Sequence record: OP079919.1
From: Klebsiella phage KPN8
DNA length: 64,000 bases
Strand: one strand, 5' to 3'
Shown here: in pieces, positions 40,196 through 61,225 of the stretch
How the letters are laid out: each line of letters opens with the position of its first letter
Numbering within the stretch: the first letter of the stretch is position 1
The notes under the pieces: model-generated
The model's input: the letters and a program-made list of their open reading frames with translations, nothing else
Databases searched by the model: none
Told to the model about the DNA's origin: nothing
Program-made: the position numbers and the translations under genes

Positions 40196-42076
40196 ATGAC
40201 CACACCAACTCAACTACCGATACCCAGTAGCAATTTGCTGGATTCGAGATTTAACTTTGAGAAGTTAGACCAGATAGTAAACTCAGATGCCGATTTCTAT
40301 TTGGACCGTTTTGGCAAACAACGTCTTACCGTTTTGGGCGCCACCAATCAGCTCATCCAAAGCCTGAAAGATCAAACTGGTGCCAACAATGTAACCTACG
40401 TCAAATCCAAGGTGGATAAAGTACTGTCATCGATAGGGTATTCCCTTGACGTCATTCCAATGAATATCTTTGACAAGGCTTATTTGTGTTCGGGAACTGA
40501 CAACCCAGATCCTAATACTTGGATCTGGACCGCCGCCCTGCAGGGCGTTTTATCGGATATCGCTTCTTATAAGCTTTTTACCCTCAACGGAAATGACTAT
40601 TATACAACTTTCTCCCTACGAATACCTGGAGGGGTTTATCAGATCGACGATCTGGTTAGTTTGGGTAAGGTAGCAGGGACTGGAGGAGGAGCATCCTTTA
40701 GGACCAACATCGTTATCAACGGAGATGGAAAAAGCAGTTCGGTTCTTCGTCTTATAGGTGATGATAAACAATTGTTTAAATTCACAGAAAGCCGTTTAGT
40801 CATGAGGGATATAGGGCTTCAAACTAACGGGGCTCGTAACATAGGGATGGAATTAGGCGATCAAAATAATTGGGTCCCGATGGCCCACTCCCATCTTGAC
40901 AATGTTTCGATTACCGGATTTTGTCGCGGATTGCTAATAAGCCATTGCTTTGACAGCACGTTCGATTCTTTATTCATATCCGAGATAGCCGATACGGGTA
41001 ATGCGGTTATACCCGCTACCGGTATTGAAATTGCGCAGTTTTTAGGAAAAGATTCCTCTAACAATCCAGATAACTCTAACCAACTGACGTTTATTAACTG
41101 TGTAGTTGAGACGGCTAGGACCGATAACGCTATTTTGTTTTACGTCAACGGAATTAGTAAAAGTTATCCCCACCACGCCATCAACTTCTTAGGTGGGCAC
41201 CTGGAAACCCATAGACGGAACACGGTCTGTTATAAATTTAACAACATGGCCCTGTCAACCTTCACAGGAGTGACATTCAGTCAGAACGGCACTGATTCTA
41301 CTAACCCTGTAAACGTTGGGGTAATAACTGACTCCTGGAATATTATCTTTAATGGCGGAAGAACAGTAACCAATAATGCTAAAAACACTTACGATGATAC
41401 TTGGGATAAATTGATAACCGTAGCGGGATCTAGCATGGGGATCACGTACATGAATCATCATTTTATTACCCCATACCAGACGTATTCTTCGTATAACCGT
41501 AATGCCAACACCGTGTTCAATTTTACCGGGGCGACCGCGGGAATAAACGCCATCGATGCCGATCGCTGTAGATTGAACGACTTCACGTTCAAGCCGTTCA
41601 CCAAATCTATAGAAATAACCAGAATGGATTTGATTACTCAGCGTTTCAGGATATCCGTAAACACTTCTGGTAGTCTGGTTTTCGCGTACTCTAATGATGT
41701 TACTGGCGCCGCCGCTATGACGGATTTGGTAACCATCACCAATACAGGGAATGCGACTTTTCTTGGGTCCGTTACGGCAACTAACGTAACCGGGACGTCC
41801 GATGAGAGGTTAAAAACAGAAATAGGAGAAGTTGATCAAGTTTTAATTGATGTTGTTAAAAGTCTACGGCCTAAGAAGTATCGACTGAAAAACGACCCCC
41901 AAAACAAAATTAGAGTGGGATTCATCGCCCAAGACCTAATAGAACTTATGGATAAAGCTGGATTGGATTTCAAGAAATACAGTATTATCGCAGAGTTTAA
42001 TATTCCTGGGGATGATTCAGAAAACACGTATTATTCCTTGGACTATGATGAAATAATGTTGTTAAGATCCTTGTAG
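40196..42076 (+). CDS. tailspike/depolymerase-like protein 1 with C-terminal S74 intramolecular chaperone domain
   Basis: Conserved N-terminal module MTTPTQLPIPSSNLLDSRFNFEKLDQIVNSDADFYLDRFGKQRLT. Beta-helix body. C-terminus TGTSDERLKTEIGEVDQ ... GFIAQDL matches the S74 self-cleaving chaperone signature (S-D-x-R-x-K). Confidence 0.8.
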   Translation: MTTPTQLPIPSSNLLDSRFNFEKLDQIVNSDADFYLDRFGKQRLTVLGATNQLIQSLKDQTGANNVTYVKSKVDKVLSSIGYSLDVIPMNIFDKAYLCSGTDNPDPNTWIWTAALQGVLSDIASYKLFTLNGNDYYTTFSLRIPGGVYQIDDLVSLGKVAGTGGGASFRTNIVINGDGKSSSVLRLIGDDKQLFKFTESRLVMRDIGLQTNGARNIGMELGDQNNWVPMAHSHLDNVSITGFCRGLLISHCFDSTFDSLFISEIADTGNAVIPATGIEIAQFLGKDSSNNPDNSNQLTFINCVVETARTDNAILFYVNGISKSYPHHAINFLGGHLETHRRNTVCYKFNNMALSTFTGVTFSQNGTDSTNPVNVGVITDSWNIIFNGGRTVTNNAKNTYDDTWDKLITVAGSSMGITYMNHHFITPYQTYSSYNRNANTVFNFTGATAGINAIDADRCRLNDFTFKPFTKSIEITRMDLITQRFRISVNTSGSLVFAYSNDVTGAAAMTDLVTITNTGNATFLGSVTATNVTGTSDERLKTEIGEVDQVLIDVVKSLRPKKYRLKNDPQNKIRVGFIAQDLIELMDKAGLDFKKYSIIAEFNIPGDDSENTYYSLDYDEIMLLRSL

Positions 42077-42160
42077 TTTGGGAAATTGGGGGCGTATTTT
42101 TAACTAACGTACCATAACGTCCCCCCCCCACTCCAATTTAGTCAAACAAAGGGTGTTATG
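42077..42160 (+). promoter_or_regulatory. conserved tailspike leader element, copy A (imperfect inverted repeat, C9 tract, AGTCAAACAAAGGGTGTT ATGATGAC)
   Basis: Homologous to 54481..54577 at the nucleotide level: ggaa(a)ttggggg..tttttaac(t/c)aac(g/t)taccat..c(a)ccccaatt(t/c)agtcaaa(c/t)aaagggt. Confidence 0.35.
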
Positions 42161-44299
42161 ATGACGACTCCAACTAAGAACGACATTCCAAGCAATAATT
42201 TGTTGGATGCTCGTTTTAACTTTGAAAAGCTCGATCAGATTGTTAATAGCGACGCGAACTATTACCTTGATCGATTTGGTAAACAACGACTCACTTCGGC
42301 CGGATTGGAAGATTTAGCCAGACGATTATCTGAAGATTATGAATCCACCCTATCTAATCAGGATGGGTATAAGAAAATGGGGATGGTGTCTGATTTTACT
42401 ACTCTCAGAACTATCGCCCCAACAATGGAAGGTCAACGCATTCTGCTCAGGTCGGTTGACGCTGGTTCGAATAATGGATCGGGAGAGTTTATAGGACATT
42501 TAGGGAGCAATGGGGTTGACGACGGGGTTAATGTCGCGGTGGGATCCAACTTCTATTGGGAGAGGCTTTCGACTGATTTTGTTAAATCTTCTTCTATAGG
42601 TGATTACACTCGGATTAACTCCTTTATTTCAGCCGGAAATAAGAAGATCACTGTCGATGCCGATCTCAGCGGGTGGCTTAACGTCAAAAGTAACACCACG
42701 ATAACTTTTAACCCATTGTGTCGGCTGATACCTGATACCGATGACAAAGTCGGCATAAGTATTAGAGGAGCCGCCCCAACCTCCTATGTTAATCTAGCTA
42801 CTGATGCATTAGGGATAGATGGCTCAATTACCACCACTAATGACGTTTTTAACATTGGTGATTGGCTGGAAATTAGATCCAACAAGGTTCTTCCCGGCGC
42901 GAATTTTTATCAGGTTAAGCAATCTGTTTTACGCAAAGTGCTTCGTAAAACACAAAATGGAAATGGAACTTGGACATACCGTCTCCACAGTAGTTTAGGT
43001 TATAACTTTAACGTCAGCGACGGTGCTTCCGCTGGGGTTGCGACAGTATTGGAAAATATTGTTATCGATGGGGCTAACTTAAATAAAGACAATTTCACCA
43101 ATATCTTCACCATAGGGATAAACTGTTATTACGTTTATAACCTCACTATAAAAAATATCAACCTATTCGGAACAAAAGTAAAGGATTCTGCCTCAGACAC
43201 TCCAGGAAGATCCGGAATAAAACTGTATAATTGCGTTAACGTTAGAATCGATAATGTGAACGCCTCTTATATAGGGTGGTATGGTGTAGAGGTTATGGGA
43301 TGCAGTGAAAACGTAGATGTAAATCGTTTATACGGTGTGGATTGTCGACATACCGTTTCCATGAACTGGATCGAATCTGGCGACCTTTATGGTGGGCCTA
43401 TGTGGGTTTCGGTAAGGAACTCAGCAAGTCACGCTGCAAGATTAAGTGGGTTTGACACTCATGATCTAGGAAAGGGGATCGCATTTATTAATTGCCAGAG
43501 TTTCGATTCTGGTGATGATGGATTCCAAGTAAGGGCGATGGACACCGTTCTAATCGATTGCCATGCTGAAGGATCGACACTTGATGGCTTCGGCGGCGCT
43601 ACTGGCGCAAAGAACAGCAAATTAGTAAACTGTTCTTTCAACTACAACGTCAGATACGGAATTAATTTAGGTTATGAAGGCGGTATTGTTATCGACTGTG
43701 ACGTCGATAATAACGGTTACATGGGGATTTGTACCATCGGCGGACTCATTCAAGGAGGGTCGGTCACCAATAATTATCCGGCTGCTATCGATATAGGCGC
43801 CGGATTTAATGCCGCCCAAACCGATCTCAAAATCGATGGTGTTAGAATGCCCTCTTCGACCGCCCAGACAAAAATTTTGAGTTTTGCTGGTGACGCGGTA
43901 GCCGCTAACAACAAACCTGAGTTGGTTAGAATGGAAAATTGTTACGTTCCTGGTTACGGAAGAGATTGGGTCAGACTGGTATCGTTCACCGTCCAACCTT
44001 TACCCCCGGTGCTTAATAATAATCTACTTACTTCCAGCTTAACCTCCCCTGGAAAAATAAGCGGGCAAGTCCAATTATCTGCAGGGACAGCCACGGTGAC
44101 AACCACAGAGGTTTTCTCACAACTTGGTAGCGGTGCAAATGTTTTAAAATACTCATCGCAGATTAAGTTGAAACCTATCGCTCGTTCTGCCAATATAGGC
44201 GCTCATTATGTTTCAGCAATCAACAACGGGACGTCCTTTGTAATCAATTCAACCAATTCCTCGGATGGCTCGACCATTTATTGGGAAATAACACTTTAA
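42161..44299 (+). CDS. tailspike/depolymerase-like protein 2
   Basis: N-terminal ~45 aa nearly identical to protein 1 (MTTPTKNDIPSNNLLDARFNFEKLDQIVNSDANYYLDRFGKQRLT). Beta-helix segments (NCVNVRIDNVNASYIGWYGVEV, IDCHAEGSTLDGFGG). A second ATG lies at 42158. Confidence 0.8.
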   Translation: MTTPTKNDIPSNNLLDARFNFEKLDQIVNSDANYYLDRFGKQRLTSAGLEDLARRLSEDYESTLSNQDGYKKMGMVSDFTTLRTIAPTMEGQRILLRSVDAGSNNGSGEFIGHLGSNGVDDGVNVAVGSNFYWERLSTDFVKSSSIGDYTRINSFISAGNKKITVDADLSGWLNVKSNTTITFNPLCRLIPDTDDKVGISIRGAAPTSYVNLATDALGIDGSITTTNDVFNIGDWLEIRSNKVLPGANFYQVKQSVLRKVLRKTQNGNGTWTYRLHSSLGYNFNVSDGASAGVATVLENIVIDGANLNKDNFTNIFTIGINCYYVYNLTIKNINLFGTKVKDSASDTPGRSGIKLYNCVNVRIDNVNASYIGWYGVEVMGCSENVDVNRLYGVDCRHTVSMNWIESGDLYGGPMWVSVRNSASHAARLSGFDTHDLGKGIAFINCQSFDSGDDGFQVRAMDTVLIDCHAEGSTLDGFGGATGAKNSKLVNCSFNYNVRYGINLGYEGGIVIDCDVDNNGYMGICTIGGLIQGGSVTNNYPAAIDIGAGFNAAQTDLKIDGVRMPSSTAQTKILSFAGDAVAANNKPELVRMENCYVPGYGRDWVRLVSFTVQPLPPVLNNNLLTSSLTSPGKISGQVQLSAGTATVTTTEVFSQLGSGANVLKYSSQIKLKPIARSANIGAHYVSAINNGTSFVINSTNSSDGSTIYWEITL

Positions 44300-44357
44300 C
44301 CTTTGCTGGATGGTGATTGGTCGACGCCGGTCTAAAACTAATTTGTTAGGGTCATTT

Positions 44358-44391
44358 AAAATCCAACCGGTCTTAAGACCGGTTGGATTTT
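44358..44391 (+). terminator. intrinsic terminator
   Basis: aaaatccaaccggtc-ttaa-gaccggttggatttt with a 15-bp stem and flanking A/T runs. Confidence 0.65.
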
Positions 44392-44433
44392 ATGCTTACC
44401 GATATTTCAACCTTCCTGACCCGAGGAATAGCA

Positions 44434-46665
44434 ATGACTTTACCAACGCAAAAACCTATTCCGAGTTCATCCATAACTGATCAATTATTTAATGCCGAAA
44501 AGATAGATCAGGTTGTTAACTCGGATGAACTAGAATATTCCGATCGTTTCGGAAAGAAACGATTCACCTTTTCAGGATTATACAACGTTGTACAGAATTG
44601 GATCAGCAGTTTGGGGTCAAGTTCCGGGGCGTCAGCTGTAGGTCTTAGCCAGGGCGGTACGGTTCAGGCCGGTCTCTACAACGTTGTTAATGTCGAACAA
44701 TTCGCTTATCTCAATACTTCAGATGATGATTGGGGTCCGGCTTTTAGAGGGGCCAGGGATAAAGCAATCGAGATATCTGCTCCGGTCGTTACTTTTAAAG
44801 GTCAGTACAAAATAAAAGTAAGCTCCGGTCCGACCACTCACACCCTGCCTTTCGACGACGGAACTTACGATACAAGAAGAACTGGCGAAGTTTTACTTTC
44901 TCCAGAAACCTTGAATACAATGCCTGTAGGATTGGAATGGCCTTCCGGACTCTCCCTTAAATCAGACGGGATCGGAAATAACTCAATTACTTTCGATTGG
45001 GATAATGCCACTGTTGGGCTGTCTCAGGGGATTGGTATCTGCATCAGGGTCAGAAACTGGGACGGAACTTATCTTGCTAAGGCCGGGTCAGTTAATCGCA
45101 TGAATAGCGATATAGCCAATGTGGAGTTTGATGGGTTTAGCGTAAATAATGCCTTTATCGGAATACTGGCCGACGGTATCGTGGGATCAGTCAGTTGGGG
45201 CAGTCTCCAGTTTAAGAAATGTTTCTTACCTATGACTTGGCAGGGCGCCGACAGATGCACGATTAAGAAACTGAGATTTACAGATTGTCCTACCGGATTC
45301 TCGGTAGGTGGATGGTGGCTGACCCGTAACGACATATCAGGATCCAATACCGGATTGGGGGTCCCGCCTTACATTGCAGGAACCGACGTGTACTGCATCG
45401 GATGGATGGACTTCGTTAAAATTGAATCTCTGGAGTACTCTAATAGTACTTCGTTTGACAATTCCCCGTTGTTTGCCGCGGTAGATACTTTCTTCGACAC
45501 CTATTTCTACAAAAGCGCGAACAGCGCTAGAACTGCTAGTGGTGGTCGATGCACTAATACAGGCCCTAACCTAACTAGCGCGAGTACGTTAGCGGCAGAT
45601 TCTCCGTTCTTAGGTATCGCCGGGCGCGCTCACTCACAAATGGGGCGTTACCACCGAAATCACATCTTGAATGAAATTATTTCTCTCAAGACGTGGGGAT
45701 GTTTCAGGGCATCAGTCCTTACCACTGCTAATGGAAACTCGGAGCTCAACGTCCCGGGGTGCATAGTGGGTACCGCGTACATCGAACAGGCCTGTAAGGT
45801 CACGGTTGGCGGTGACGCCACGGTGGGGGGAAGTAATGACTTCGTTACATCAGGTAAAGATGTTTGGAAAGGGACAAAAACTTATTCTAAGTATTATGCT
45901 GGTGAAGGATCCGTAATCGTTAAAGATGGATGGTCTGTTAATAGTTTGGGGTTGTTCCCGTCAGCGCGGACTGTTGCAAGAAATGATAATGGGTATAATA
46001 ACAGACTAAGAAGAACAATTGTCGACGATGGCACAGGGAAACCGGTCATACTCGAACAGCTTTCTGAAACGGTCTATGCGACCCCTCCTCAGAAATTTAT
46101 TCCTAACGCCGTGGGTTCAGTAGACGACAAATATTACTGGGTTCAACTAGAAAAGAACGTCTCTTCAAAGGCTACTATTTATTCTGGTGTTCCAACGACG
46201 GCGGCGCAAACACCTATAACCTCTCCGGCCATTAAAGTAATAATGGAACGTTTAGGTAACAGAGTTAAATTAAAAATTAATTTGGATGCGTCAAATTACG
46301 CAGCCGGCGGCAGTAATCCGGTGGTAATCGGATTTACTGGGGTCTATAAACCTATTCTTACTGCAAGTCCCGATTACGCCCTTGGGGCGTACGGTCCGGT
46401 GAGACCCATAATGGTCAGCACCAAAACATTTACAGTTACCGATTCTACTTCAGTGAGTCGGACGTTTAGGATCGAGCCGGTCGCGCATCAAGCTGGGGTA
46501 TTCACTGATGGCGGCGGGGTTAATAATTACTACTTTGTTTTGCTCACCCAGCATCATACTTCTGACACTAATAGACTGTTGTGGTCGGATTTCACCGGTT
46601 CGTTATGTCAGATAGAAATAGAATATGATACGAATGACGCTATCACTTCATCCAGCGTATTTTAA
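44434..46665 (+). CDS. tailspike/depolymerase-like protein 3
   Basis: Start moved to MTLPTQKPIPSSS so that the conserved module begins the protein. The listed 44383 start lies inside the upstream terminator hairpin. Shares an extended ~75-aa N-terminus with protein 4. Confidence 0.75.
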   Translation: MTLPTQKPIPSSSITDQLFNAEKIDQVVNSDELEYSDRFGKKRFTFSGLYNVVQNWISSLGSSSGASAVGLSQGGTVQAGLYNVVNVEQFAYLNTSDDDWGPAFRGARDKAIEISAPVVTFKGQYKIKVSSGPTTHTLPFDDGTYDTRRTGEVLLSPETLNTMPVGLEWPSGLSLKSDGIGNNSITFDWDNATVGLSQGIGICIRVRNWDGTYLAKAGSVNRMNSDIANVEFDGFSVNNAFIGILADGIVGSVSWGSLQFKKCFLPMTWQGADRCTIKKLRFTDCPTGFSVGGWWLTRNDISGSNTGLGVPPYIAGTDVYCIGWMDFVKIESLEYSNSTSFDNSPLFAAVDTFFDTYFYKSANSARTASGGRCTNTGPNLTSASTLAADSPFLGIAGRAHSQMGRYHRNHILNEIISLKTWGCFRASVLTTANGNSELNVPGCIVGTAYIEQACKVTVGGDATVGGSNDFVTSGKDVWKGTKTYSKYYAGEGSVIVKDGWSVNSLGLFPSARTVARNDNGYNNRLRRTIVDDGTGKPVILEQLSETVYATPPQKFIPNAVGSVDDKYYWVQLEKNVSSKATIYSGVPTTAAQTPITSPAIKVIMERLGNRVKLKINLDASNYAAGGSNPVVIGFTGVYKPILTASPDYALGAYGPVRPIMVSTKTFTVTDSTSVSRTFRIEPVAHQAGVFTDGGGVNNYYFVLLTQHHTSDTNRLLWSDFTGSLCQIEIEYDTNDAITSSSVF

Positions 46666-46680
46666 CATTTAAGGTGTGAT

Positions 46681-48441
46681 ATGACGCTCCCAACTCAAAA
46701 CGCTGTTCCTAGTTCAGCTAAGAACGACCAGCTCTTTAATGCTGAAAAAATAGATCAGGTCGTCAATAGTGACGACCTCCAGTACACAGATCGCTTCGGT
46801 AAGAAGCGATTTACTTTCTCTGGTTTATACAACATAATCCAAACATGGGTTGCGAGTTTAAGTGATACCACCGGAGCAGGATCGGTCGGGATCGCGCAAG
46901 GGGGGTACATCCAGCAATCTCTTTTGGAAGTGACACCGATGATGCAAGGTGCCGTAGGAGACGGCGTCGCTGATGACTCACAGGCGTTGATCAAAACATT
47001 TACTACTGCTAAAACACTTGGATTGCGGGTTAAAATAGATCGCGCTTATCTTTGCTCCTCAGCGCTTGCCGTTTCTGGACCGCTATACTTAGAAGGAATC
47101 AACCCGGAAACAGGAAAAATTATTTTTACAAATAAAGATGACTTCGGTCTTTACATTACTCAGATCAAATCCACAGACTTCATAACCATAAAAAATATCA
47201 GCATTACGGCCGGAGCTAAAATCGTTAATCCAAAGGGCCTCCTAACCATCGACGGAAGCTCTCAATTAACAACTGATCAGTCGGCAGGCAAATACCTCTT
47301 AGCAGATAGGACAATCCGCCGCGGGCTGTTGGATAATGTTAATCTCGATTGCCTTAGTGGGAACTACGCGGTTAACTACCTTAACATTATTTCATGGATG
47401 AATTATTCCGTTAGAAACATATTGATAAGAGGGTCAAGGGACAACCTGTCGGCGCTCACTAATGGAATACTTTTAAACGGCGATGGTTTCCCCGTCGACA
47501 TCCACATGACCGACCTTTTGATGTATAACCTAGGTCGGGCTATTAACTCCGTGGATTACGTGGAAGGACTCCACATTTCAGAGTTTGAATTTGTAAACGT
47601 TTTAAGGGGGATTAGCGCCGATTACGACTCAAATTATTCCAAACTCAGCTCATCGGTATGCGGATGTTACGGACCTATGATTCACACGGGTCATGTAAAC
47701 CTGGGAACGATGACTGGCGCTGACTCATGCATTTACATTAAAAATACTGTCACTCCTCGTATCAAAGATCTTTTGCTTTTCAATAGCGCCGGCGCTGCCG
47801 TCACAAACAGTTACGGGGTTTACGTTTACGGATCAACCAGCGGTGGGGAAATATCCAGCGTTTATGTTGCGGGTGGTGGTGCCGCCAACACGAAGACCAA
47901 TAATTATTCAATTAGAGTATATGGCGCCAATGGATTAAACATCAAGGACTGTACCGGAAGCTATGCGGGAGCCGTAGTGTATCTTGAAGGGGTTTCCACT
48001 AACTGTGTCATATCAGGAAATAGTGGTATCAGCACCACTAACGTCGTTTATATTTTCAGTGCCAATAACGCCAACAATAAAATAACTTCTGATAACTCGG
48101 GAATAGGAATCACGGATAAGGTGGTCGGCGGAGATCCTAGCGGGTCTTATGTGGAACCTCTAATCTGGCAGAGGAAGTACACACTGAATTTAGCCGCGGC
48201 CAAAGATGCCGGGACGTCTTTCACTTTTAACGTCCCGATTCCCGGGGGAAATTTTGGTGTTGCTCCAGATGCCGCTTTCGCGACATTACCCTCCAATCTT
48301 ATCGGACAATTTTCATATAACCCTTCGGCCAGTTCAGCAACAAGTCTGAATGTAACCATTTATTTTATCTCGGCCGCAGCCATAGGGAGTTACGATATTT
48401 TAATTTCGGCAGCTGGTTTTGGCGTAAGCAGAACGCAATAA
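46681..48441 (+). CDS. tailspike/depolymerase-like protein 4
   Basis: MTLPTQNAVPSSAKNDQLFNAEKIDQVVNSDDLQYTDRFGKKRFTFSGLYN. Only 15 nt downstream of protein 3, so co-transcribed. Confidence 0.75.
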   Translation: MTLPTQNAVPSSAKNDQLFNAEKIDQVVNSDDLQYTDRFGKKRFTFSGLYNIIQTWVASLSDTTGAGSVGIAQGGYIQQSLLEVTPMMQGAVGDGVADDSQALIKTFTTAKTLGLRVKIDRAYLCSSALAVSGPLYLEGINPETGKIIFTNKDDFGLYITQIKSTDFITIKNISITAGAKIVNPKGLLTIDGSSQLTTDQSAGKYLLADRTIRRGLLDNVNLDCLSGNYAVNYLNIISWMNYSVRNILIRGSRDNLSALTNGILLNGDGFPVDIHMTDLLMYNLGRAINSVDYVEGLHISEFEFVNVLRGISADYDSNYSKLSSSVCGCYGPMIHTGHVNLGTMTGADSCIYIKNTVTPRIKDLLLFNSAGAAVTNSYGVYVYGSTSGGEISSVYVAGGGAANTKTNNYSIRVYGANGLNIKDCTGSYAGAVVYLEGVSTNCVISGNSGISTTNVVYIFSANNANNKITSDNSGIGITDKVVGGDPSGSYVEPLIWQRKYTLNLAAAKDAGTSFTFNVPIPGGNFGVAPDAAFATLPSNLIGQFSYNPSASSATSLNVTIYFISAAAIGSYDILISAAGFGVSRTQ

Positions 48442-48554
48442 TCTTTTAGTATTTAATAGATTGAGGGCGTGTAATCGATAATAACTGAGGGATGATGATT
48501 AAATTTATATTACGTCGACTTCATCCCAGATTGATCGTCATTTAGGAGTTTTCA

Positions 48555-50697: not shown

Positions 50698-50736
50698 AAT
50701 TATTACTCCTTCTCCGGTTAACCGGAGAAGGAGTAA
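50698..50736 (+). terminator. intrinsic terminator
   Basis: ttactccttctccgg-ttaa-ccggagaaggagtaa. Confidence 0.55.
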
Positions 50737-50821
50737 TAGATACGTCCGATTTTATGCTGATCTAAATTCAGTAGACTTGCGCAAGTCTTTTATACTACAT
50801 TCTTTTTAAAGGAGTAACCTC

Positions 50822-52711: not shown

Positions 52712-52720
52712 TGGTGAGCT

Positions 52721-52755
52721 AGGGGAGGGGGCGCCCTCCTCCCTTATTTATGAGG
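52721..52755 (+). terminator. weaker, imperfect stem-loop at a gene end: 52721..52745
   Basis: GC-rich imperfect hairpin (one mismatch, two G-U wobbles) 3' of the stop codon, followed by ttatttatg. Confidence 0.35.
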
Positions 52756-52764
52756 TTTCTAAAA

Positions 52765-54480
52765 ATGACCACGCCTACCAATAATGACATTCCGAGCAGT
52801 TCGGTACAAGATAGGTTGTATAACGCCGAGAAATTTGATGAATTCATGAATTCATCGAACACTAATTTCACTGATCGCAAAGGAGTTTCACGATGGACAC
52901 TAAGCGGAATCAGAACTGTTATAAGTAACTGGATGACGAGTCTGAGTAGCAATGCAGGCGGAAACACCATAAAGGTCGATAATGCGCTACTACCAGACTT
53001 GGACTATGCGCCGAGCATTTTTAGATTTATGACCGACGCAGATATCGATTCGATGAAGAACACTCTGGGTAGCGAAGTTCCTGTCGATTACGCCTTACAA
53101 GCAGTTATCGATGCCGGTTATAAGTCAGTCAGATTCCCCCACAACGTTAAGGGCATCTATATTCTTTCTGGGTTGGTAACACTCCCTTCAGCCTTCACAA
53201 TCTTTGGAACGTGTTCCAAACCATATAGTAGTATTACCGACTCTTCCTTCTTAAATAAAGGGGTGACTTTACGTAAAGCCGTCGGGGCGGATTATCTGTT
53301 CGGAGCCGGTTCGGTATTCAGAATTTATGGGTGTAATCTAGATGGAAGAGACAACCTTCGCCCTCTAATCAACCAGACCAATCAAATACGCGGCGGAATA
53401 TTAGAAGATTGCGGGATCTACCGTTTTCTTTATGGAGTCGGGAGTTATGGTTACACCTCTATTGTTGTTAAACGATCATCCATTTGTTCAAATAACATAG
53501 GAATAAGGAACCTTATCGACAGCCGTATTATGGACGTTACCCTCAATGCCAATAAAGGTAACGGGGTCGATAACCAGGTCGGGGCCAATAATAATATTTT
53601 TGAAAACGTCAGGAATGAATGGAATGAAGGGATAGGGTATTATTTTTATGGGTCGGTGGGGAACATCATTACTGGTGAACTTATTGATAGATCTGGTTCG
53701 GCCAATGTTGTCGTCCTGGCCGGTGGATCCGCATTGATTTCAGGGGTTATCTCCCAACGACCCGCTCGTACGTTGAGTGAGGACTCAAGTTATAACACTC
53801 ATTTCTATGTGGCCGGAAGTAAATCAAAACTTTGTTTATCCGGTGTAACTACGGCAACGGGCATTGACGACGGGGGTACCGGAACTTTAACGCCACAAAG
53901 GACAATCGTGATAGGCGGGACGAATACCGACGTGACCGTTCTTTCTAGCGGGTGCGATTTATCGGGAAGTATTCTCTCGCCGTTAAGATTCGACGTTACT
54001 CCAGCTACGGTAGGATTTAGAAACAATATTGGCGTTGACGACTGGGTTAACACCGGGCAATATCAGTTCATCAAAGGAAGAGCGTCGATCGGTAGTCAGA
54101 AAAATGCGGTGATCTTGGCCAGTGGTGTGGGGAGTACCGCGACGTTAGTTTTTGATAACACAGGGTTCGTCGACCCCACTTCTAATTTCCCCGATATACC
54201 TAAGAAACGAAAAATTATCATAGAAAGCATGACTTCGGTATCGGCTTCCAGAACTGTAGGTTTTTATGAAGTTTCGTTATTGACCAGGCGTTTCTCTAGC
54301 ACTGCCGGTTTTGATGTCTTACAGGAAACATCTTATCCTGCTGGAGCGTGGGCGCGGACTACCGCAACTGGTGTTTCTATAAACATTGCCCTCTCAGCGG
54401 ACGCCAAACAGATAACAGTTACGCTAACCAACGTAGATGGCGTCGGAAGATTTATAGATGCTGCTCTTAAGTGGGATTAA
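52765..54480 (+). CDS. tailspike/depolymerase-like protein 7
   Basis: Start moved to MTTPTNNDIPSSSVQDRLYNAEKFDEFMNSSNTNFTDRKG. Shares an extended N-terminus (RWTLSGIR..ISNWMTSL) with protein 8. Confidence 0.75.
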   Translation: MTTPTNNDIPSSSVQDRLYNAEKFDEFMNSSNTNFTDRKGVSRWTLSGIRTVISNWMTSLSSNAGGNTIKVDNALLPDLDYAPSIFRFMTDADIDSMKNTLGSEVPVDYALQAVIDAGYKSVRFPHNVKGIYILSGLVTLPSAFTIFGTCSKPYSSITDSSFLNKGVTLRKAVGADYLFGAGSVFRIYGCNLDGRDNLRPLINQTNQIRGGILEDCGIYRFLYGVGSYGYTSIVVKRSSICSNNIGIRNLIDSRIMDVTLNANKGNGVDNQVGANNNIFENVRNEWNEGIGYYFYGSVGNIITGELIDRSGSANVVVLAGGSALISGVISQRPARTLSEDSSYNTHFYVAGSKSKLCLSGVTTATGIDDGGTGTLTPQRTIVIGGTNTDVTVLSSGCDLSGSILSPLRFDVTPATVGFRNNIGVDDWVNTGQYQFIKGRASIGSQKNAVILASGVGSTATLVFDNTGFVDPTSNFPDIPKKRKIIIESMTSVSASRTVGFYEVSLLTRRFSSTAGFDVLQETSYPAGAWARTTATGVSINIALSADAKQITVTLTNVDGVGRFIDAALKWD

Positions 54481-54577
54481 GTAGCTAAATTCCTTATTAG
54501 TAGTGGAATTGGGGTGTTTTTAACCAACTTACCATTGTCTTTTGCCTCCACCCCAATTCAGTCAAATAAAGGGTTCA
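54481..54577 (+). promoter_or_regulatory. conserved tailspike leader element, copy B (stem gaattggggtg ... caccccaattc with ~33-nt loop)
   Basis: See copy A. The inverted repeat is perfect here, and the element ends in the SD plus ATGATGAC start. Confidence 0.35.
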
Positions 54578-56311
54578 ATGATGACCGCACCGACTAATAA
54601 CAATGTACCGAGTAGCTCGGTTCAAGACAGATTGTACAATGCTGAAAAATTCGATGAATTTATGAATTCGGATAATCCCAATTATACCGATCGTAAGGGG
54701 AACTCCCGCTGGACTCTGAATGGGATAAGAATAGCCATATCCAATTGGATGACGTCATTGGGTACGTCAGTCGGGTCAGCCTATATTGGTAAAGGAAACG
54801 ATACTGTATCCAATCTTTTAGAGGCCTCCATCACTGAATATCTCACCGCTGAAGATCAAAATACACTCAGAAGTTCGTTGGGGGCGGAAGTCAATGTAGA
54901 TTATGCTTTAAAGGCAGCGATCGACGCAGGTATTCTCCGATTAAGATTCCCTAGGATGATAGGGATTTATGTTCTGGGCGCCGACCCTGTTACCCTTCCA
55001 ATAGGCTTTTCTATGGTCGGGGATAGAACCAGGTTATATACAGCGCCTTCCGATTCTACCTTTCTTAACAAGGGTACTGTGCTAAGATTAAGTTCCGGAG
55101 CCTCTTCGCTGTTCTTGTTAACTCAAAAGCATCAGTTTAGCGGAATTAATTTCGATGGCCGTGATAAAACGGTTAACTTAATGAAAGGAGCGGACCAAAC
55201 TCAATTCTGTAGGTTCTATAATTGCGGAATCCATCGATGGTTAAACGGATTGGGCGGATCTTCTTCAGGCGGATATACGGCTACACTTTCAGTATCTTTT
55301 TGTGATATTTCTGGAAATTATCGGGGCGTGCGTAATCTTATCGATTCCAAAATATCGGATAGTACCATTAACGCCAATGACACCAATGGGGTCGAACTTA
55401 ACGTAGGCGCCAATAACAACGTCTTTATTAATGTCAGAAACGAATGGAACAATGGCGTTAACTACTACGGGTATGGGGGTAAGCGCAACATCGTCGTCGG
55501 GGAGCTATGCGATCGAGCCGGACTCAACGGAATTGTTGCTGCGGGAGGCGCCCAGTGGTCCCTCGAAGGAGTGAATGTGCAGCGTTCGGGCAGGCTCGCC
55601 ACCCAGGGATCTGTCGACGACGCCCATTTCTATGTGACTGGTGAAGGATCATCTATCATAATGAGCGGAGTTTACACAACTCAAGGCTCTGACGATACAG
55701 GGGGTGGGAGAGTCTCCCCGTCGTACACTCTGGCTGGTGGAGGAAATTCATCTGACACGAAAACATTCTCGGCCGTGAACAGCGTCTTGAGCGGATTTGG
55801 GGTTTCAGCGATAAGACCTGGGTCCTCCACTTTCTCTAATATGAGCGTTGTGGGTTGTAACGGCTTTTACGATAGAATATCCGGAAACACAATAAATTTC
55901 TACGAAGGAAACTTCTCTTTGGGGAAAAGGGCTTCGTCGTTGAGTTTAAGTGGAACGGGTTCTACGGCACAGATCACATTCCCTACAACAGACTCGTTTC
56001 CGCAATACAGGGTGGGTTTTACCAGACAGTTGCATATAACAGCTAGGAACAACATCAATACGGGATCGGTCGCTTATTACAACGTCCCGCTATTCTTTTA
56101 TAGAGAACAATCGACCGCCGTTGTGCGAGCGAATACAAGTAAAGAAGAAACAATGGTGACCCTCAGCGGAGGAACTTGGGGTTTAACCGCGGCGTCCCCG
56201 ACCGGGGTCGCTATTGACCTGGCGGTTTCTTCTGATGGCCTGACGTTAACCGTAACGCTGACAGCCATCGATAACTCATCAAGAATCATTGATGTGGAAC
56301 TGAGGGCTTAA
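54578..56311 (+). CDS. tailspike/depolymerase-like protein 8
   Basis: MMTAPTNNNVPSSSVQDRLYNAEKFDEFMNSDNPNYTDRKG. The upstream leader is homologous to the leader of protein 2. Confidence 0.75.
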   Translation: MMTAPTNNNVPSSSVQDRLYNAEKFDEFMNSDNPNYTDRKGNSRWTLNGIRIAISNWMTSLGTSVGSAYIGKGNDTVSNLLEASITEYLTAEDQNTLRSSLGAEVNVDYALKAAIDAGILRLRFPRMIGIYVLGADPVTLPIGFSMVGDRTRLYTAPSDSTFLNKGTVLRLSSGASSLFLLTQKHQFSGINFDGRDKTVNLMKGADQTQFCRFYNCGIHRWLNGLGGSSSGGYTATLSVSFCDISGNYRGVRNLIDSKISDSTINANDTNGVELNVGANNNVFINVRNEWNNGVNYYGYGGKRNIVVGELCDRAGLNGIVAAGGAQWSLEGVNVQRSGRLATQGSVDDAHFYVTGEGSSIIMSGVYTTQGSDDTGGGRVSPSYTLAGGGNSSDTKTFSAVNSVLSGFGVSAIRPGSSTFSNMSVVGCNGFYDRISGNTINFYEGNFSLGKRASSLSLSGTGSTAQITFPTTDSFPQYRVGFTRQLHITARNNINTGSVAYYNVPLFFYREQSTAVVRANTSKEETMVTLSGGTWGLTAASPTGVAIDLAVSSDGLTLTVTLTAIDNSSRIIDVELRA

Positions 56312-56378: not shown

Positions 56379-57152
56379 ATGCATAATCGTAGTGTTAAGC
56401 GTGCTAACCGCGACGCTCGTCGCGAAGCAAGACGTCAAGATAAGTCCCAAAGTAGCCAACTGAAACTGGTGGACAGCAATTTCAGTGAAGTAAATCTACC
56501 TCTTGCAAAAGCTGATCGGAGTAAGATTGAGCCGAAAAACCCAATGCAGCAAAAATATTGGGATGGGTTACATGCCCACGATGTTGTCATCGGTATAGGG
56601 GAAGCGGGTAGCGGTAAAACGTTCCTCCCAACTTGTTATGCCGCGGAACGTCTGATGGCTAAAGACGTGGAAAAGATCATCGTTACACGGCCAGTTTTAC
56701 AGGCCGATGAAGATCTGGGTTTTCTCCCCGGGGATGTTAATGAGAAATTCGCACCTTACTTCCGACCGGTCTACGATATCTTACTGAAACGCCTGGGTGG
56801 TGGAATGCTCAACTATTGCATGAAGCCTGGCGTGGAGAAAGTTGAAGTCGCCCCCTTTGCTTTTATGAGAGGTCGTACTTTTTCTGACTCAGTAGTGATT
56901 CTTGACGAAGCGCAAAACGTTACAGTCATGCAGATGAAAATGTTCATCACTCGTATGGGTGAGAACACTACGGTAATCATCAACGGCGACCTTACCCAGT
57001 GCGATCTTCCTAAAGGAGTTAAATCCGGTCTGGAAGATCTGCTGGAACGCATCGAACGAGATCCTGAAAATGGATTCCCGGTTTATCGTTTCAACGCCGC
57101 TGATAGTGTGCGGTCAGATATTTGCTCCAAAGCCCTGAAGCTTTACAAATAA
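56379..57152 (+). CDS. phoH: PhoH-like ATPase
   Basis: P-loop GIGEAGSGKTFL. VILDEAQN Walker B. Overall PhoH architecture and size. Confidence 0.85.
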   Translation: MHNRSVKRANRDARREARRQDKSQSSQLKLVDSNFSEVNLPLAKADRSKIEPKNPMQQKYWDGLHAHDVVIGIGEAGSGKTFLPTCYAAERLMAKDVEKIIVTRPVLQADEDLGFLPGDVNEKFAPYFRPVYDILLKRLGGGMLNYCMKPGVEKVEVAPFAFMRGRTFSDSVVILDEAQNVTVMQMKMFITRMGENTTVIINGDLTQCDLPKGVKSGLEDLLERIERDPENGFPVYRFNAADSVRSDICSKALKLYK

Positions 57153-57157
57153 GTCCT

Positions 57158-57200
57158 AATAACTCCTATTCCCTTATCGGGAATAGGAGTTATTTTAAAC
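57158..57200 (+). terminator. intrinsic terminator
   Basis: aataactcctattccc-ttatc-gggaataggagttatttta. Confidence 0.6.
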
Positions 57201-57242
57201 GCGCCACGGCCATTTATGAACTTTTCATAAGAGACTGTAATC

Positions 57243-57710
57243 ATGAACCTCATGTACGATAATTACTACGGAAAAGAAATAATTGGATTGGGTTTAGAGG
57301 GAGAAGTCATCACAATGTTAAATTTGGCGATGACTGACATTAATCACTTCGCTAAGAAAAGTATCGCTAAAGACATCAACCCCTATCCGTTCAATCTGGA
57401 AGATTTTAAACACAACCGTTTAAACGAACACTACTTCCTCGTTTTTGATGGGAAGAAAATAGCGTCGATTCTATCCGTCGTTTACGCTTTAGAGCATCAT
57501 CTCAAAATAGCTAAAATCTTTAACGTTTATACGTTACCGGAGTATCGCCATAAAGGGCTTGCTAAACGCAACCTAATCGCCGCTATCGTGTCGGCAAGAT
57601 CAAATGGGTACATTGTGCAGTTAAACGTTTACAGGTCTAATAAAGCCGCTCAGAGGCTTTACAAGAGCCTTAAATTTAAACCCGTCGAATACACTATGCA
57701 GCTCGGTTAA
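57243..57710 (+). CDS. GNAT family N-acetyltransferase
   Basis: YRHKGLAKRNLIAAIVSARSNGYIVQLNVYRSNKAAQRLYKSLKF matches GNAT motifs A/B. Confidence 0.65.
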   Translation: MNLMYDNYYGKEIIGLGLEGEVITMLNLAMTDINHFAKKSIAKDINPYPFNLEDFKHNRLNEHYFLVFDGKKIASILSVVYALEHHLKIAKIFNVYTLPEYRHKGLAKRNLIAAIVSARSNGYIVQLNVYRSNKAAQRLYKSLKFKPVEYTMQLG

Positions 57711-57819
57711 TTTTAACGACCATAATGTTTTATTGGTAATAAACGAGAATACGTTGTTTTAAACATCGGTTTGAAATAACACGTTCTCATTTTAAACTGT
57801 AAAATAAAAGGTGAATGGA

Positions 57820-58608
57820 ATGAAAGTGACTAAAGAAGAATTGATTGAACGCTTTAATCTAGTAATAGAAAAAGAAGATATTAATTTCAGTGATGGGAGT
57901 GATTCGCTTAAACTGGTCTTAGACAACCCTAAGATGACCTCTCAGGCGTTCGAGAATATAGTGGGGTGGTTAACAGAGATCCTATTCGTTGGGAGCAACC
58001 TGATACATATTAGCGAAGAAACATCATTAACTGGCGTGATTTTCTTAAACGATTTAACAAGCTACTCCAAAAAACTTCATTTAAATAACTCCCGGGTTCA
58101 TCGCACCAATATTTCAAATTTGGCTCAGTGCACCATTGCCGACTCCAAACTCCAAGATGTTTCGATTACGTCGAACGGGGAATTTGGGGAAGGAATTACT
58201 ATTAAATACAGTGATCTTATCGGCTGCGATTTGGTCAATGACTTTATTGATCACAGTTATATCATCAACAGAGATTTGACCGGAAGAACGACTTTGAGGA
58301 ATTGCCGAGTTGCGCACTCCAGACTTTTCTTTGGACTGCAAACGATAACGAATAAAAGATTCTCGTCCGTTATTATCGACGCCCCTCAATTTAGCGGCGA
58401 TTATTTCTCCATCGGATTAAATGGAGAAAGCACCGTAGGGTATATCAATGGAACCGAAAAAGTCATCGTAGCGGGTGAGAAGAGATATAACCTGGGGAGT
58501 TGGGAAGAACAATTTGTTAAGAAAGAACAAAATTTATTCATTAAAATGATGAATCAAAAGAAATTAGAAATGATGAATATGTTCTTCGATAGTTTGGCGT
58601 TTAAATAA
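57820..58608 (+). CDS. pentapeptide-repeat-like protein (tentative)
   Basis: Reiterated (S/T/A)(D/N)(L/I)xx units (NDLTS, ISNLA, SDLIG, CDLVN, RDLTG) in the middle third. In-frame ATG at 57820 after a GTG at 57811. Confidence 0.4.
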   Translation: MKVTKEELIERFNLVIEKEDINFSDGSDSLKLVLDNPKMTSQAFENIVGWLTEILFVGSNLIHISEETSLTGVIFLNDLTSYSKKLHLNNSRVHRTNISNLAQCTIADSKLQDVSITSNGEFGEGITIKYSDLIGCDLVNDFIDHSYIINRDLTGRTTLRNCRVAHSRLFFGLQTITNKRFSSVIIDAPQFSGDYFSIGLNGESTVGYINGTEKVIVAGEKRYNLGSWEEQFVKKEQNLFIKMMNQKKLEMMNMFFDSLAFK

Positions 58609-58610: not shown

Positions 58611-58650
58611 AAGTTTTACTCTACCTCGCGATATCGCGAGGTAGAGTAAA
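58611..58650. terminator. bidirectional terminator between convergent genes
   Basis: ttttactctacctcgcgatatcgcgaggtagagtaaa. Confidence 0.6.
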
Positions 58651-58654: not shown

Positions 58655-61225
58655 TTAACTTACATAAATGGAAGTTAACGATAACTGAGAGAATATCCCT
58701 GAAATGTACGCCTGAACGCCTCGTGTCCCTACGGTGTAGCGATCAATAAAACTATTCATTTGGGTCGAACTAGTTCCTGAATAGTCAGTCCCTGAAACCG
58801 ACACGGAGGTTGTTCCCGATAGAGTATTGACTGAACTGGTAATATTAGTGGCGATGGATCTCGCCAAAATACCACTTCCGGGATAGTCAATTTTAAAAAC
58901 ATCAAAAAAGGTATTACCGGATTGCAAATGGGTGGCCTGCAGACAATTTCCTTTGGCCACATACAAAGCGCCGGACCAACTGCTATTATTTACTCCGGTA
59001 TTCCAGATCATCAGAGAAGAAATTGGTGTACCTGAGTTATTATAATAGGAGCAGTCACTTAACCGGAACCATTGGGCTAAATTCAAATTAGATGATGTGA
59101 CCGAACTTAACGAGTAGTCGCCGGAAAAACTTACCCCTGACGCTTTCAGTCTGTGAAGGAACGCCGAATCGGCGGTCGTTAAAGGCAAATTAGTCCCTGA
59201 TTTGACACTCCCTCCCCTCATGTTAATTTCTACACGTTGATTGGCTTCCTGGGTGCCGTCGTTGGTAATGAACCTTGATAACTCACAGTCGTTGAAATTA
59301 TAGGACCCCCTTTGTGAGATTCTCACTAGGGTGGGGGTGCCGTTGTAATTGGGGTTGTGTAATCTCCTAGCGTCGAGCCTGATATTGTGTTGAAATCCGT
59401 AAGATGGACGTTTGATAATTAAATTATCCACCCCTACGTTGTTCATACTGACTTTCATGTCGATAGGTTCGAACATAGTGTCGGTCGATGCAGAAGTATT
59501 GCTTGCCCTGGGCTTCGTGTTGGTGAAATCAATTTTTAACGTCCCGCCGGCGGCGTAGGTAACGTTGTCAAATCGAATATTCATAGGAGGAGTAACCGTT
59601 CCGTCGCGGTTTATCCAATAAATATTTTGAAGGCAACTAGAAGCTTCCGGAGTCTCAATAGTCAAGCCATCAATATCTATTTTATTAAATAGCTCACCGG
59701 CCATCTGAGACCCAGTAGGTAAAGAAGTGTAATTATCGGCGGCTCCCTGTACAATGGACCCTTCTCCATTGGACGCTAAACTGTAATATTTCCAAAATCC
59801 TCTGACCCTGACGTTACGCATAATCAGCGTCCCATCGGTGATTCCTCCGGAAGTAGTCCTGGCCTGCACAAGTGAAGGGAAAAGAAATTTTCCGTAGTAA
59901 GGGTCTCCGGATCCTCTCCCCAGTTCGTATACTGTGTCAAGTATCTCGAGAGTTGAGTTTTTAGTACCTAAGAAAACAGCAGCTCCGTCACCAATCTTGC
60001 AGTTTACAAGTTTGTAATATCCGATGCTTGGGTTATGGCTATCGAAGTTGTTGGCCGAGCAATTATCAAAAATGGTATCGGCTATCCAACCGGCCGCGGA
60101 TATCGACCCCCATCCGTAGCCAAACGCGTTTACGTTTCTTACGTATAACTTCGCCCCCCACCCATGGTGGAGTGTGTAAGATGCATAAGTGGTCGTTTGA
60201 TCCGAGGAAGAAAAGGAAGCGGTTGGGTGAGCGTCGTAGATGAAATCCACGTAGGTGTTGTAGTAATACTGAATGTCGATAACGTGACGTGATCCTATTT
60301 CCGTAATCGGTTTATTGAGTATTCTCCCCTCTTTTATGATCAAGTTGGACACATAAAAGAACTGGAAGAATATAGGTCTAGGCCCATAACGATAGTCGAC
60401 GTCCGGCATAATAAATTCACTGAAACCAGCCTGGATAGGTAGCGCCGATATGCTAGTAATCGACGTCCCGTTGTAAGGGAAGACGTTATCCATTTTGCCG
60501 TTAGCACTTATCCTGGTTACGTGAGCGAGTTTCTGAGTTTTTGCGCCAGCTTGGGTTTGTGTGCTATTATAAACATATAGGTCGTCTGAAAAATTCATAA
60601 TGACCATGCTGTCGTTTAAAGTCGTGTCCGATCCCAACGAATCTAAACAACCGTTTCCGCTTAAGAAGTCTGTGGAGGCATTAGTATTTAACTTAGTTAC
60701 CACGGAAGATCCGGAGGCATGGTTAACTAATCCGCTCGATTGAGAGATCCAGAAAGTCCCGGTAAAATCAGCCGCCGGAATAATTTTCATTCCCCCTAAA
60801 TCGGTCTTCTTATTATCGATGATCCAGTTAAACTTGGCGTTACCGGAAATCAAGTACTCACCAGATTTTTGTTTTATAGGAATGCCCGTCAATGTCGACA
60901 ATTGAATAAGGGCTAAAAGTTTGTCGGTGACGTCAACATCCCCCGTGTTCTCTATACCAAACATGTCACAGGAAAGAAATGTTTGAAGGTTAGAGACTTT
61001 ACCTCCATAAGGAAGATTTATAATTGACGACCCGTCCCCTCCGGTTAAAACATTCAGGGTTTCCTGGACGGCCGCCGCTACCCCCTTAGCGGTCAATCTC
61101 TGGTTACCAAAACGATCAGTATAGGTATTCTCATCGGAATTAATGATCTCATCTAACTTTTCGGCATTAAATCTAACATCTATAGCGGTGCTACTGGGTA
61201 TACCATTTTGTGTTGGAGTCGTCAT
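58655..61225 (-). CDS. tailspike/depolymerase-like protein 9 (inverted orientation)
   Basis: MTTPTQNGIPSSTAIDVRFNAEKLDEIINSDENTYTDRFGNQRLT N-terminal module. 856 aa. The only minus-strand member. Confidence 0.8.
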   Translation of the reverse strand: MTTPTQNGIPSSTAIDVRFNAEKLDEIINSDENTYTDRFGNQRLTAKGVAAAVQETLNVLTGGDGSSIINLPYGGKVSNLQTFLSCDMFGIENTGDVDVTDKLLALIQLSTLTGIPIKQKSGEYLISGNAKFNWIIDNKKTDLGGMKIIPAADFTGTFWISQSSGLVNHASGSSVVTKLNTNASTDFLSGNGCLDSLGSDTTLNDSMVIMNFSDDLYVYNSTQTQAGAKTQKLAHVTRISANGKMDNVFPYNGTSITSISALPIQAGFSEFIMPDVDYRYGPRPIFFQFFYVSNLIIKEGRILNKPITEIGSRHVIDIQYYYNTYVDFIYDAHPTASFSSSDQTTTYASYTLHHGWGAKLYVRNVNAFGYGWGSISAAGWIADTIFDNCSANNFDSHNPSIGYYKLVNCKIGDGAAVFLGTKNSTLEILDTVYELGRGSGDPYYGKFLFPSLVQARTTSGGITDGTLIMRNVRVRGFWKYYSLASNGEGSIVQGAADNYTSLPTGSQMAGELFNKIDIDGLTIETPEASSCLQNIYWINRDGTVTPPMNIRFDNVTYAAGGTLKIDFTNTKPRASNTSASTDTMFEPIDMKVSMNNVGVDNLIIKRPSYGFQHNIRLDARRLHNPNYNGTPTLVRISQRGSYNFNDCELSRFITNDGTQEANQRVEINMRGGSVKSGTNLPLTTADSAFLHRLKASGVSFSGDYSLSSVTSSNLNLAQWFRLSDCSYYNNSGTPISSLMIWNTGVNNSSWSGALYVAKGNCLQATHLQSGNTFFDVFKIDYPGSGILARSIATNITSSVNTLSGTTSVSVSGTDYSGTSSTQMNSFIDRYTVGTRGVQAYISGIFSQLSLTSIYVS

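Follow-up and report, generated by a model that had tools for sequence, protein, structure and literature searches.

How can one phage be equipped with many different receptor-binding proteins (RBPs), and what decides where on the particle each of them is mounted? This question is raised by Klebsiella phage KPN8 (OP079919), a myophage that has been described by electron microscopy, genome statistics, and immunology (PMC9699088). The stretch of DNA analysed here (referred to as the window) comprises 64,000 nucleotides of sequence record OP079919.1 and contains an array of nine open reading frames (ORFs), numbered g1 to g9, whose products share an N-terminal module. Phages with multiple depolymerases are prime candidates for broad-range Klebsiella therapy, and the number of spikes per virion and the rules for mounting them are known for Alcyoneusvirus-type and CBA120-type systems only. 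We consider it likely that the nine genes form the RBP array of a Miami-like myophage of the chimallin family, in which small N-terminal plug modules serve as slot-specific addresses and the bodies behind them are exchanged.

By megablast, the window is related only to Miami-like Klebsiella jumbo phages of ~250 kb, namely, Miami, phiKp_32, YC1, VB_ZK_P1, and BUCTxx100; all matches were Miami-like, i.e., no relatedness to Alcyoneusvirus was found. The KPN8 lineage is characterized by genomes of ~250 kb with 44% GC and belongs to the chimallin family, and phage Miami has been used as a distant relative of RAY, which forms a phage nucleus. The tailspike array is analysed in none of the Miami genome note, the phiKp_32 paper, and the KPN8 paper (PMC9699088). 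The window was compared with the five deposited relatives (Miami, L001; phiKp_32, L002; YC1; VB_ZK_P1, L005; BUCTxx100, L006) and with three further Miami-like contigs (L007, L008, and L009), giving nine genomes or contigs in total. The backbone at positions 1-25000 shows 91-96% nucleotide identity to all relatives (96% and synteny for Miami), and the flanks of the array are 94-98% identical. In the Miami-like relatives the array occupies the same slot between the same flanking genes, yet merely 7-34% of the array region is covered by the relatives' DNA. Such low coverage between conserved flanks marks the array as a hypervariable island.

All nine ORFs that an initial annotation of this DNA had proposed are present, at 40196-56311 on the + strand (g1 to g8) and at 58655-61225 on the - strand (g9), and each proposed start is preceded by a Shine-Dalgarno-like sequence. 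Alternative start codons exist for g2 (42158 or 42161) and g8 (54578 or 54581), and g6 opens with GTG. When the nine N-termini are aligned, the first 60 residues are free of gaps and 17 of the 60 columns are invariant (T2, P4, T5, P10, S11, D16, N20, E22, D25, N29, S30, D37, R38, G40, R43, T45, and G48), so that the N-terminus reported as common to the nine proteins is well founded. The N-terminal similarity is significant in 36 of 36 pairs (BLASTP, E 5e-8 to 1e-123), and a hidden Markov model of the module, which is ~50-60 residues long, matches precisely these nine among the 572 six-frame ORFs of the window (E 1e-30 to 6e-38) and nothing elsewhere in it. A possible second, internal match in g3 (residues 550-584) scored -1.4 bits and was discarded as noise. 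The proteins were also said to diverge completely behind the module, which is incorrect, as BLASTP among the nine shows that several pairs share longer stretches: g7 and g8 are paralogues throughout (42.5% identity across 590 residues), g2 and g6 have 135 residues in common, g3 and g4 have 99, and g5 has ~130 in common with both g7 and g8.

The role of the module is suggested by a single solved structure. A profile of the nine modules, searched against the PDB, matched 9occ_G, i.e., the tailspike gp13 of the Shigella siphophage Sf11, over residues 2-60 (E 1.8e-23), and no other solved structure. This chain is also matched by each of the nine proteins singly (E 1e-8 to 7e-12), and gp13 used as a BLASTP query against the window finds all nine; identity between the modules and the N-terminal ~60 residues of gp13 is about 45-57%. 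In Sf11, cryo-electron microscopy (cryo-EM) resolves gp13 residues 4-59, and the N-terminal helices of the trimer form a bundle with one adaptor helix that belongs to gp17, the distal tail protein; six spikes are fixed to the tail tip in this way (PMC12724387). An AlphaFold2 (AF2) model of g5 has, in its module part, a helix at residues 14-29, a beta-hairpin, and a helix at residues 46-61, with a predicted local distance difference test score (pLDDT) of about 70-84. With Foldseek this part superimposes on 9OCC chains G/I/J/K/L with template modelling (TM) scores of 0.86-0.91 and a root-mean-square deviation of 1.1-1.2 A, and the AF2 model of g4 contains the same secondary-structure elements in its module part. 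The notion of one adaptor followed by variable enzymatic heads was therefore correct: the shared element is homologous to gp13 residues 2-60, whose docking role comes from the Sf11 cryo-EM work (PMC12724387). By this homology, each of the nine proteins would presumably be a homotrimeric tailspike, consisting of a helix-hairpin-helix docking module of ~50-60 residues and an interchangeable body that recognises or degrades capsule, and the three N-terminal modules of a trimer would wrap a helix of a tail or baseplate protein and thereby plug the spike into the virion.

The module is found in 235 phage records. It is present as a single copy in siphophages of ~46-48 kb that infect Salmonella, Klebsiella, Escherichia, Shigella, and others, and among phage records multiple copies (4-7 detected places) are confined to Miami-like genomes, with weak copies in Aeromonas jumbo phages. 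The latter, with genomes of ~235 kb, carry these weak copies on tail spike genes of ZPAH34 (NC_071007.1, 2 places) and CF8 (MK774614.2); given these copies, the use of the plug by jumbo phages may predate the Klebsiella lineage. Among 1.84 billion representative proteins, 1,821 carry the module, and the best 150 of these 1,821 all match it at residues 1-60. The Pfam family PF27114 (Phage_tail_beta) is precomputed on many module-bearing relatives (P0067-P0087, L007-L009) and was assigned to no window protein by the local Pfam search. PF27114 is probably newer than the local Pfam copy, and it likely covers the domain directly behind the module in proteins of the g2 and g6 types.

For other Klebsiella phages with multiple RBPs, the model generally accepted is hierarchical branching, as in CBA120, G7C, PhiK64-1, and RaK2; in it, one or a few RBPs bind the baseplate and the others are hung on T4 gp10-like or XD domains, and in KPN8 the N-terminal peptide would dock there. 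A branching scaffold could be provided by one of four large proteins encoded upstream, at 5669-19287 on the + strand (935, 1215, 1170, and 1071 residues), which are distant paralogues with 25-28% identity near their N-termini. The first of these (5669-8476) contains the Pfam domain Tail_spike_N (TSP1/gp66) and a segment similar to Sf11 gp13 residues 66-143 (E 5e-6). The four are candidate scaffolds for the spikes; their earlier description as giant fibres belonging to a host-range toolkit is not sustained, as they are conserved structural paralogues with 91-96% nucleotide identity among relatives, and they lack the module. Branching nevertheless appears unlikely for KPN8, given that Pfam and PHROGs detect no gp10-like, XD, or Tail_spike_N domain in any of the nine proteins, that all nine bear the same kind of module instead of an anchor plus assorted peptides, that the module's homologue of known structure has one alpha-helix as its binding partner rather than a gp10-like domain (PMC12724387), and that the PhiK64-1 homologue of the g1 body is without the module.

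Behind the module, the bodies belong to several known families of tailspikes and capsule depolymerases. The g1 gene (40196-42076, + strand, 626 residues) joins a class A module (residues 1-~50; classes are explained below) to a tailspike body with a C-terminal Peptidase_S74 intramolecular chaperone (Pfam, residues 535-590, E 9.5e-14). Its product is 100% identical to the KPN8 'putative tail fiber protein', matches 9occ_G at residues 2-50, and belongs to the tail protein family phrog_27613 (E 7e-86). The g1 body is 31% identical to a 779-residue tail spike of PhiK64-1; RaK2 gp530, of the same length, has been modelled as a beta-helix plus chaperone. The g2 gene (42161-44299, + strand, 712 residues, class A, variant A2) carries a body of the K1 capsule lyase family, with the Pfam domains K1-lyase_Rider (E 4e-35, 120 bits) and K1-lyase_C (E 1e-21, 78 bits), both exceeding a cut-off of 27, as well as Beta_helix, and with PDB matches to 9k4a (E 8e-113) and 7w1c (E 2e-91). 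The catalytic residues Tyr311, His373, and Arg397 of the K1 lyase (NTUH-K2044-K1-1 ORF34) are conserved in g2 as Y374, H434, and R458, in an alignment that assumes a 20-residue tag offset in chain 7w1c_A. The same body is present, at 99.5% identity, in the first RBP of phiKp_32.

The three class B genes follow. The g3 gene (44434-46665, + strand, 743 residues, class B1) encodes a tailspike body that partly resembles KN1 depolymerase (PDB 9m4c/9m4d, residues 232-428, E 1e-21), belongs to the tail protein family phrog_22560 (E 5e-62), and is 97.7% identical to its counterparts in phiKp_32 and L007. In g4 (46681-48441, + strand, 586 residues, class B2), a segment close to the N-terminus (residues 42-140) resembles phi92 gp150 (6e0v, E 8e-15), and weak matches to pectate-lyase and colanic-acid-degradation PHROGs were obtained; the protein is 98% identical to its L007 counterpart. 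The g5 gene (48555-50696, + strand, 713 residues, class B3) is 100% identical to KPN8_76 at the protein level and has a predicted right-handed beta-helix body, which is 51-54% identical to Klebsiella prophage tail proteins bearing other N-termini. The top Foldseek matches of its AF2 model (pLDDT 70) are Kp9 gp42, rhamnogalacturonase A, CBA120 TSP3, and the Sf6 tailspike.

The class C gene g6 (50822-52711, + strand, 629 residues, GTG start) has a body like the K2-2 tailspike protein (PDB 8iqe/8iq5, residues 79-628, E 4e-58; phrog_4217, E 2e-131) and is 99.5% identical to its L009 counterpart. The two class D genes, g7 (52765-54480, + strand, 571 residues, D1) and g8 (54578-56311, + strand, 577 residues, D2), encode bodies of the type of the Klebsiella phage Kp9 type I tail fibre gp42, which matches g8 over residues 137-567 (PDB 7xy1, E 5e-36). 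Both belong to phrog_6518 (E 2e-146 for g7, E 9e-153 for g8), and g7 is 100% identical to a partial gene of L009. Lastly, g9 (58655-61225, - strand, 856 residues, class E) has a body of the K64-ORF41-like lyase family (PDB 8x8m, residues 55-763, E 7e-51); it is 99.7% identical to Miami gp099 and, from residue ~51-81 onward, shares 25-49% identity with the tail fibres of further Klebsiella phages. NCBIfam contains no family for any of the nine proteins. The proposed tail fibre, tailspike, or depolymerase nature of the nine is upheld by the PHROGs, Pfam, and PDB comparisons, with tailspike/depolymerase-type bodies in at least eight of the nine genes and enzyme families assigned to most of them. 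The further claim that the bodies are beta-helices holds for g2, g3, g6, g7/g8, and g9 (homology to solved spikes), for g5 (AF2), and for g1 (homology to the PhiK64-1/RaK2 gp530 type), and for g4 finds no support in the AF2 model (pLDDT 42).

Are the nine modules equivalent? Clustering of 41 module-bearing proteins, taken from the window and the five deposited relatives, by their first 50 residues yielded five classes, namely, A, B (with B1, B2, and B3), C, D, and E. Their genomic order is identical in all nine genomes and contigs: class A comes first, followed by two or three class B genes, class C, class D, the PhoH gene with its neighbours, and class E on the opposite strand. The window has the series A,A,B1,B2,B3,C,D,D,E, Miami has A,C,D,E, and the others have either A,B,B,B,C,D,E or A,B,B,C,D,D,E; the order is kept in each of the three additional contigs, two of which have the D,D doublet. 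The relatives possess 4-8 module-bearing genes, compared with nine in the window. One of them, deposited as 'Stenotrophomonas phage BUCTxx100' (OR529409.1), shares 94% identity with the window across 25 kb and has a Klebsiella-type RBP array with seven module genes; its Stenotrophomonas host label looks doubtful.

The class C module is identical at the protein level in every genome examined, with 0 nonsynonymous and 72 synonymous differences in 745 codon comparisons. In the other classes, synonymous differences affect 33-42% of the compared codons and the ratio of nonsynonymous to synonymous differences is 0.33-0.62. By these counts, the modules are conserved as proteins and not as DNA, and the codon pattern indicates that the classes are kept under purifying selection. 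The bodies behave differently: among the fetched public proteins, at least 85 distinct full-length bodies are found on these classes (A 25, B1 4, B2 11, B3 19, C 7, D 7, and E 12), and related bodies cross from class to class, e.g., elsewhere a B2 protein with 48% and a D protein with 43% identity to the g3 body are found.

As the classes are discrete, are under purifying selection, and follow the same order in every related genome, we propose that they are slot-specific addresses. They would direct spikes to different docking sites, and every virion would then bear a defined set. A more explicit version, to which we commit only tentatively, is an address code in which each class (perhaps also A1 and A2, or D1 and D2, separately) would bind its own adaptor helix, offered by a protein unrelated to Sf11 gp17, on the baseplate of a nucleus-forming jumbo myophage. 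The baseplate would thus form a deterministic rack for up to nine depolymerase spikes, built with a plug that is otherwise used once per virion in small siphophages. The modules could instead be equivalent and compete for a limited number of identical sites (e.g., six per baseplate), which would yield mixed virions and a form of bet-hedging, the classes being the residue of old duplications. Such generic docking would agree with the 17 residues that are invariant in all nine modules, with the single adaptor type of Sf11 (PMC12724387), with the existence of chimeras between classes A and B, and with the fact that a set of distinct partner helices was not found by the gp17 profile search. It is, however, rather doubtful, in that the classes remain discrete within each genome despite nearby homologous sequence, selection preserves them to the point that class C is invariant, and their order is constant in nine genomes while the bodies turn over.

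Several points weigh against our own reading as well. The docking partner was not found: BLASTP, phmmer, and a profile of 120 gp17 homologues, run against six-frame translations of the window, of the related loci, and of ~99% of the phiKp_32 genome, detected no gp17-like adaptor (best E-values 0.1-3); the partner must be a different protein. KPN8 is a myovirus with a baseplate unrelated to a siphophage tail tip, and the docking geometry of Sf11 may not transfer to it. Chimeric modules, with class A sequence in front and class B sequence behind (Miami gp092, L001 8001-9638; P0088), blur strict addresses, the sub-distinctions A1/A2 and D1/D2 are soft, and the conserved class order could be due to synteny alone. 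The literature found holds no virion proteomics for this lineage, KPN8 being known from electron microscopy and its genome sequence; the g4 model, built on a shallow alignment of 8 sequences, is unusable for the body fold; and capsule specificities cannot be read from 25-40% identity.

The organization of putative promoters parallels that of the classes. The motif ATTTTATG has five copies in the window, all on the sense strand and 30-85 nt upstream of a fibre gene. One precedes a large tail-fibre gene (8789-8796, + strand). The others lie upstream of the class A unit g1-g2 (40113-40120, + strand; a candidate late promoter with TATG as its last bases), the class B unit g3-g5 (44387-44394, + strand, preceded by a hairpin at 44363-44386), the class C gene g6 (50749-50756, + strand, where a DNA block conserved with the relatives begins), and the class E gene g9 (61294-61301, - strand). 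A variant, TATTTATG, is located upstream of the class D unit g7-g8 (52745-52752, + strand) and is preceded by a hairpin at 52722-52741. In eight related loci (L001, L002, and L004-L009), all 29 copies of ATTTTATG are found close upstream of a module-bearing gene, chiefly of class A, the first class B gene, class C, or class E. The late promoter consensus of phiKZ is TATG, with the G as transcription start (PMC4666361), and ATTTTATG is probably a late promoter of a phage RNA polymerase. From the placement of the motif and its likeness to the phiKZ promoter, five putative transcription units coincide with the five classes, each of which would open with its own TATG-type late-promoter-like motif. 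A scan of the window for sigma-70 promoters and intrinsic terminators gave no more sites than shuffled sequences, as would be expected of a phage relying on RNA polymerases of its own. At 58615-58650, a palindromic hairpin of 16 bp separates g9 from the 265-residue ORF that converges on it (see below) and is likely a bidirectional terminator.

The initial annotation had ascribed a homologous 5' leader to g7 and g8; the leader is common to g2 and g8. The two leaders (42090-42160 and 54505-54577, + strand) are about 75-80% identical and belong to the second genes of the A and D doublets. Both contain TTTTTAACYAACKTACCAT, which in the window is unique to these two sites and is absent from nine related loci. 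Folding of the two leader RNAs was no better than that of shuffled sequences (z -0.02 and -0.83 for g2 and g8, respectively).

How the array changes can be read from the boundaries of conservation. DNA similarity to the relatives breaks off inside each gene, after 90-200 nt or, in class C, after ~400 nt. Bodies shared with the five deposited relatives are those of g2, g3, and g9 only, and the three extra contigs again contain g2, g3, g4, g6, and g7. Compared with phiKp_32, the window has an extra segment between two class A modules, comprising the g1 body, the intergenic leader, and the start of g2, and the chimeric modules of gp092 and P0088 record recombination inside the module. Breakpoints, body turnover, and chimeras together show that the array evolves by recombination in or just after the modules, i.e., by cassette replacement, deletion, and doubling of classes; host range would then evolve through recombination that replaces the body just downstream of an address. 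A class B gene is lacking in Miami, and a deletion spanning from an A module to a B module would fit this. Truncated ORFs with an intact N-module were also observed, of 273 residues in phiKp_32 (L002 14834-15652) and of 121 residues in VB_ZK_P1 (L005 21886-22248); these are probably left over from cassette exchange or serve as spare docking stubs. Pairwise tandem duplication, invoked earlier for the whole array, survives in part: only the doublets A,A and D,D have the look of class duplications, and homology from end to end is limited to g7/g8. As the origin of the array, simple tandem gene duplication is rejected in view of the ancient class order in nine genomes and of body replacement just downstream of the module.

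Since the breakpoints coincide with the module, the shared 5' segment might be regarded as chiefly the boundary of a recombination or expression cassette, and several of the nine proteins as free, non-virion depolymerases or decaying copies. The truncated module ORFs and the evident gain and loss of cassettes would fit such a scenario, which we nonetheless deem highly improbable. Conservation lies in the protein and not in the DNA, with 33-42% of compared codons differing synonymously within classes; moreover, the module forms a folded domain and has its homologue in a docking element of solved structure, and all nine window ORFs are intact and have ribosome-binding sites.

A few other features of the locus were noted. 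Within the array, the gap between g8 and g9 (56379-58608, + strand) contains genes for a PhoH-like ATPase, a GNAT acetyltransferase, and the 265-residue ORF, all conserved in all relatives; for the 265-residue ORF, PHROGs and Pfam were uninformative, as they were for six small conserved ORFs upstream of the array (37297-40046). These ORFs had been taken into consideration as potential adaptors. The phiKp_32 array is flanked by two IS200/IS605 TnpB genes (L002 876-2012 and 28015-29151), which have no counterpart in the window. The product of a 155-residue ORF (34758-35225, + strand) is homologous to Acb1, an anti-CBASS phosphodiesterase (Pfam PF23474, E 6.4e-13; 49 bits, cut-off 27), and the same gene was also flagged in L008 and L009. 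No tRNAs were found in the window.

Currently, several phage systems are known to which the KPN8 array can be compared. The tailspike gp13 of Sf11 (PDB 9OCC; J Virol 2025, PMC12724387) likewise has the module at the extreme N-terminus of an enzymatic tailspike, with the same predicted fold. In Sf11 and more than 220 related siphophages of ~46-48 kb there is one copy per genome, whereas KPN8, a 257-kb myophage, has nine in ordered classes and no detected gp17-like adaptor. A siphophage docking element known from cryo-EM is thereby linked to jumbo myophages, which implies horizontal transfer of the plug between very different tail machines. The Miamivirus relatives have the same backbone, slot, module classes, and class order as the window, with 4-8 module genes instead of nine.

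PhiK64-1 and RaK2 (Alcyoneusvirus) and PhiKp24 are, like KPN8, Klebsiella jumbo myophages with 10-14 RBP genes in tandem, which encode mostly capsule-specific beta-helix depolymerases, and several KPN8 bodies are related to those of such systems (g1 to the 779-residue PhiK64-1 spike, g2 to a K1 depolymerase, and g9 to a K64-type fibre of PhiK64-1). Clusters of 10-14 RBPs are thus already known in Klebsiella jumbo phages, and the view that KPN8 has an unusually large toolkit does not stand: PhiKp24 has 14 RBPs, PhiK64-1 has 11, and RaK2 has 10, so that nine is not exceptional, although it is the highest number among the Miami-like genomes examined (4-8 elsewhere). The mounting differs, as phages of the PhiK64-1, RaK2, and PhiKp24 type use one anchor, several short conserved peptides, and T4 gp10-like branching domains, whereas KPN8, of an unrelated lineage, has an Sf11-type module on every RBP. 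The papers found describe neither the multi-copy Sf11-type plug, nor its ordered and conserved classes, nor the lack of a gp17-like adaptor.

Several enzymatic tailspikes per virion, attached via conserved N-terminal elements and widening the host range, are likewise known from CBA120/Vi1-like phages (TSP1-4), G7C (gp63.1/gp66), and K1E/K1-5/SP6. Those systems use gp10-like or XD domains or peptides of 7-11 residues to mount 2-4 spikes, whereas KPN8 has a helical module of ~55 residues in nine copies. If the module variants are true addresses, they would give host-range engineering a set of slots, with clean junctions around residues 50-65. Compared with these known systems, the KPN8 lineage appears to follow a different and simpler principle, in which one small helical plug exists in conserved variants and the enzyme bodies are swapped right behind it.

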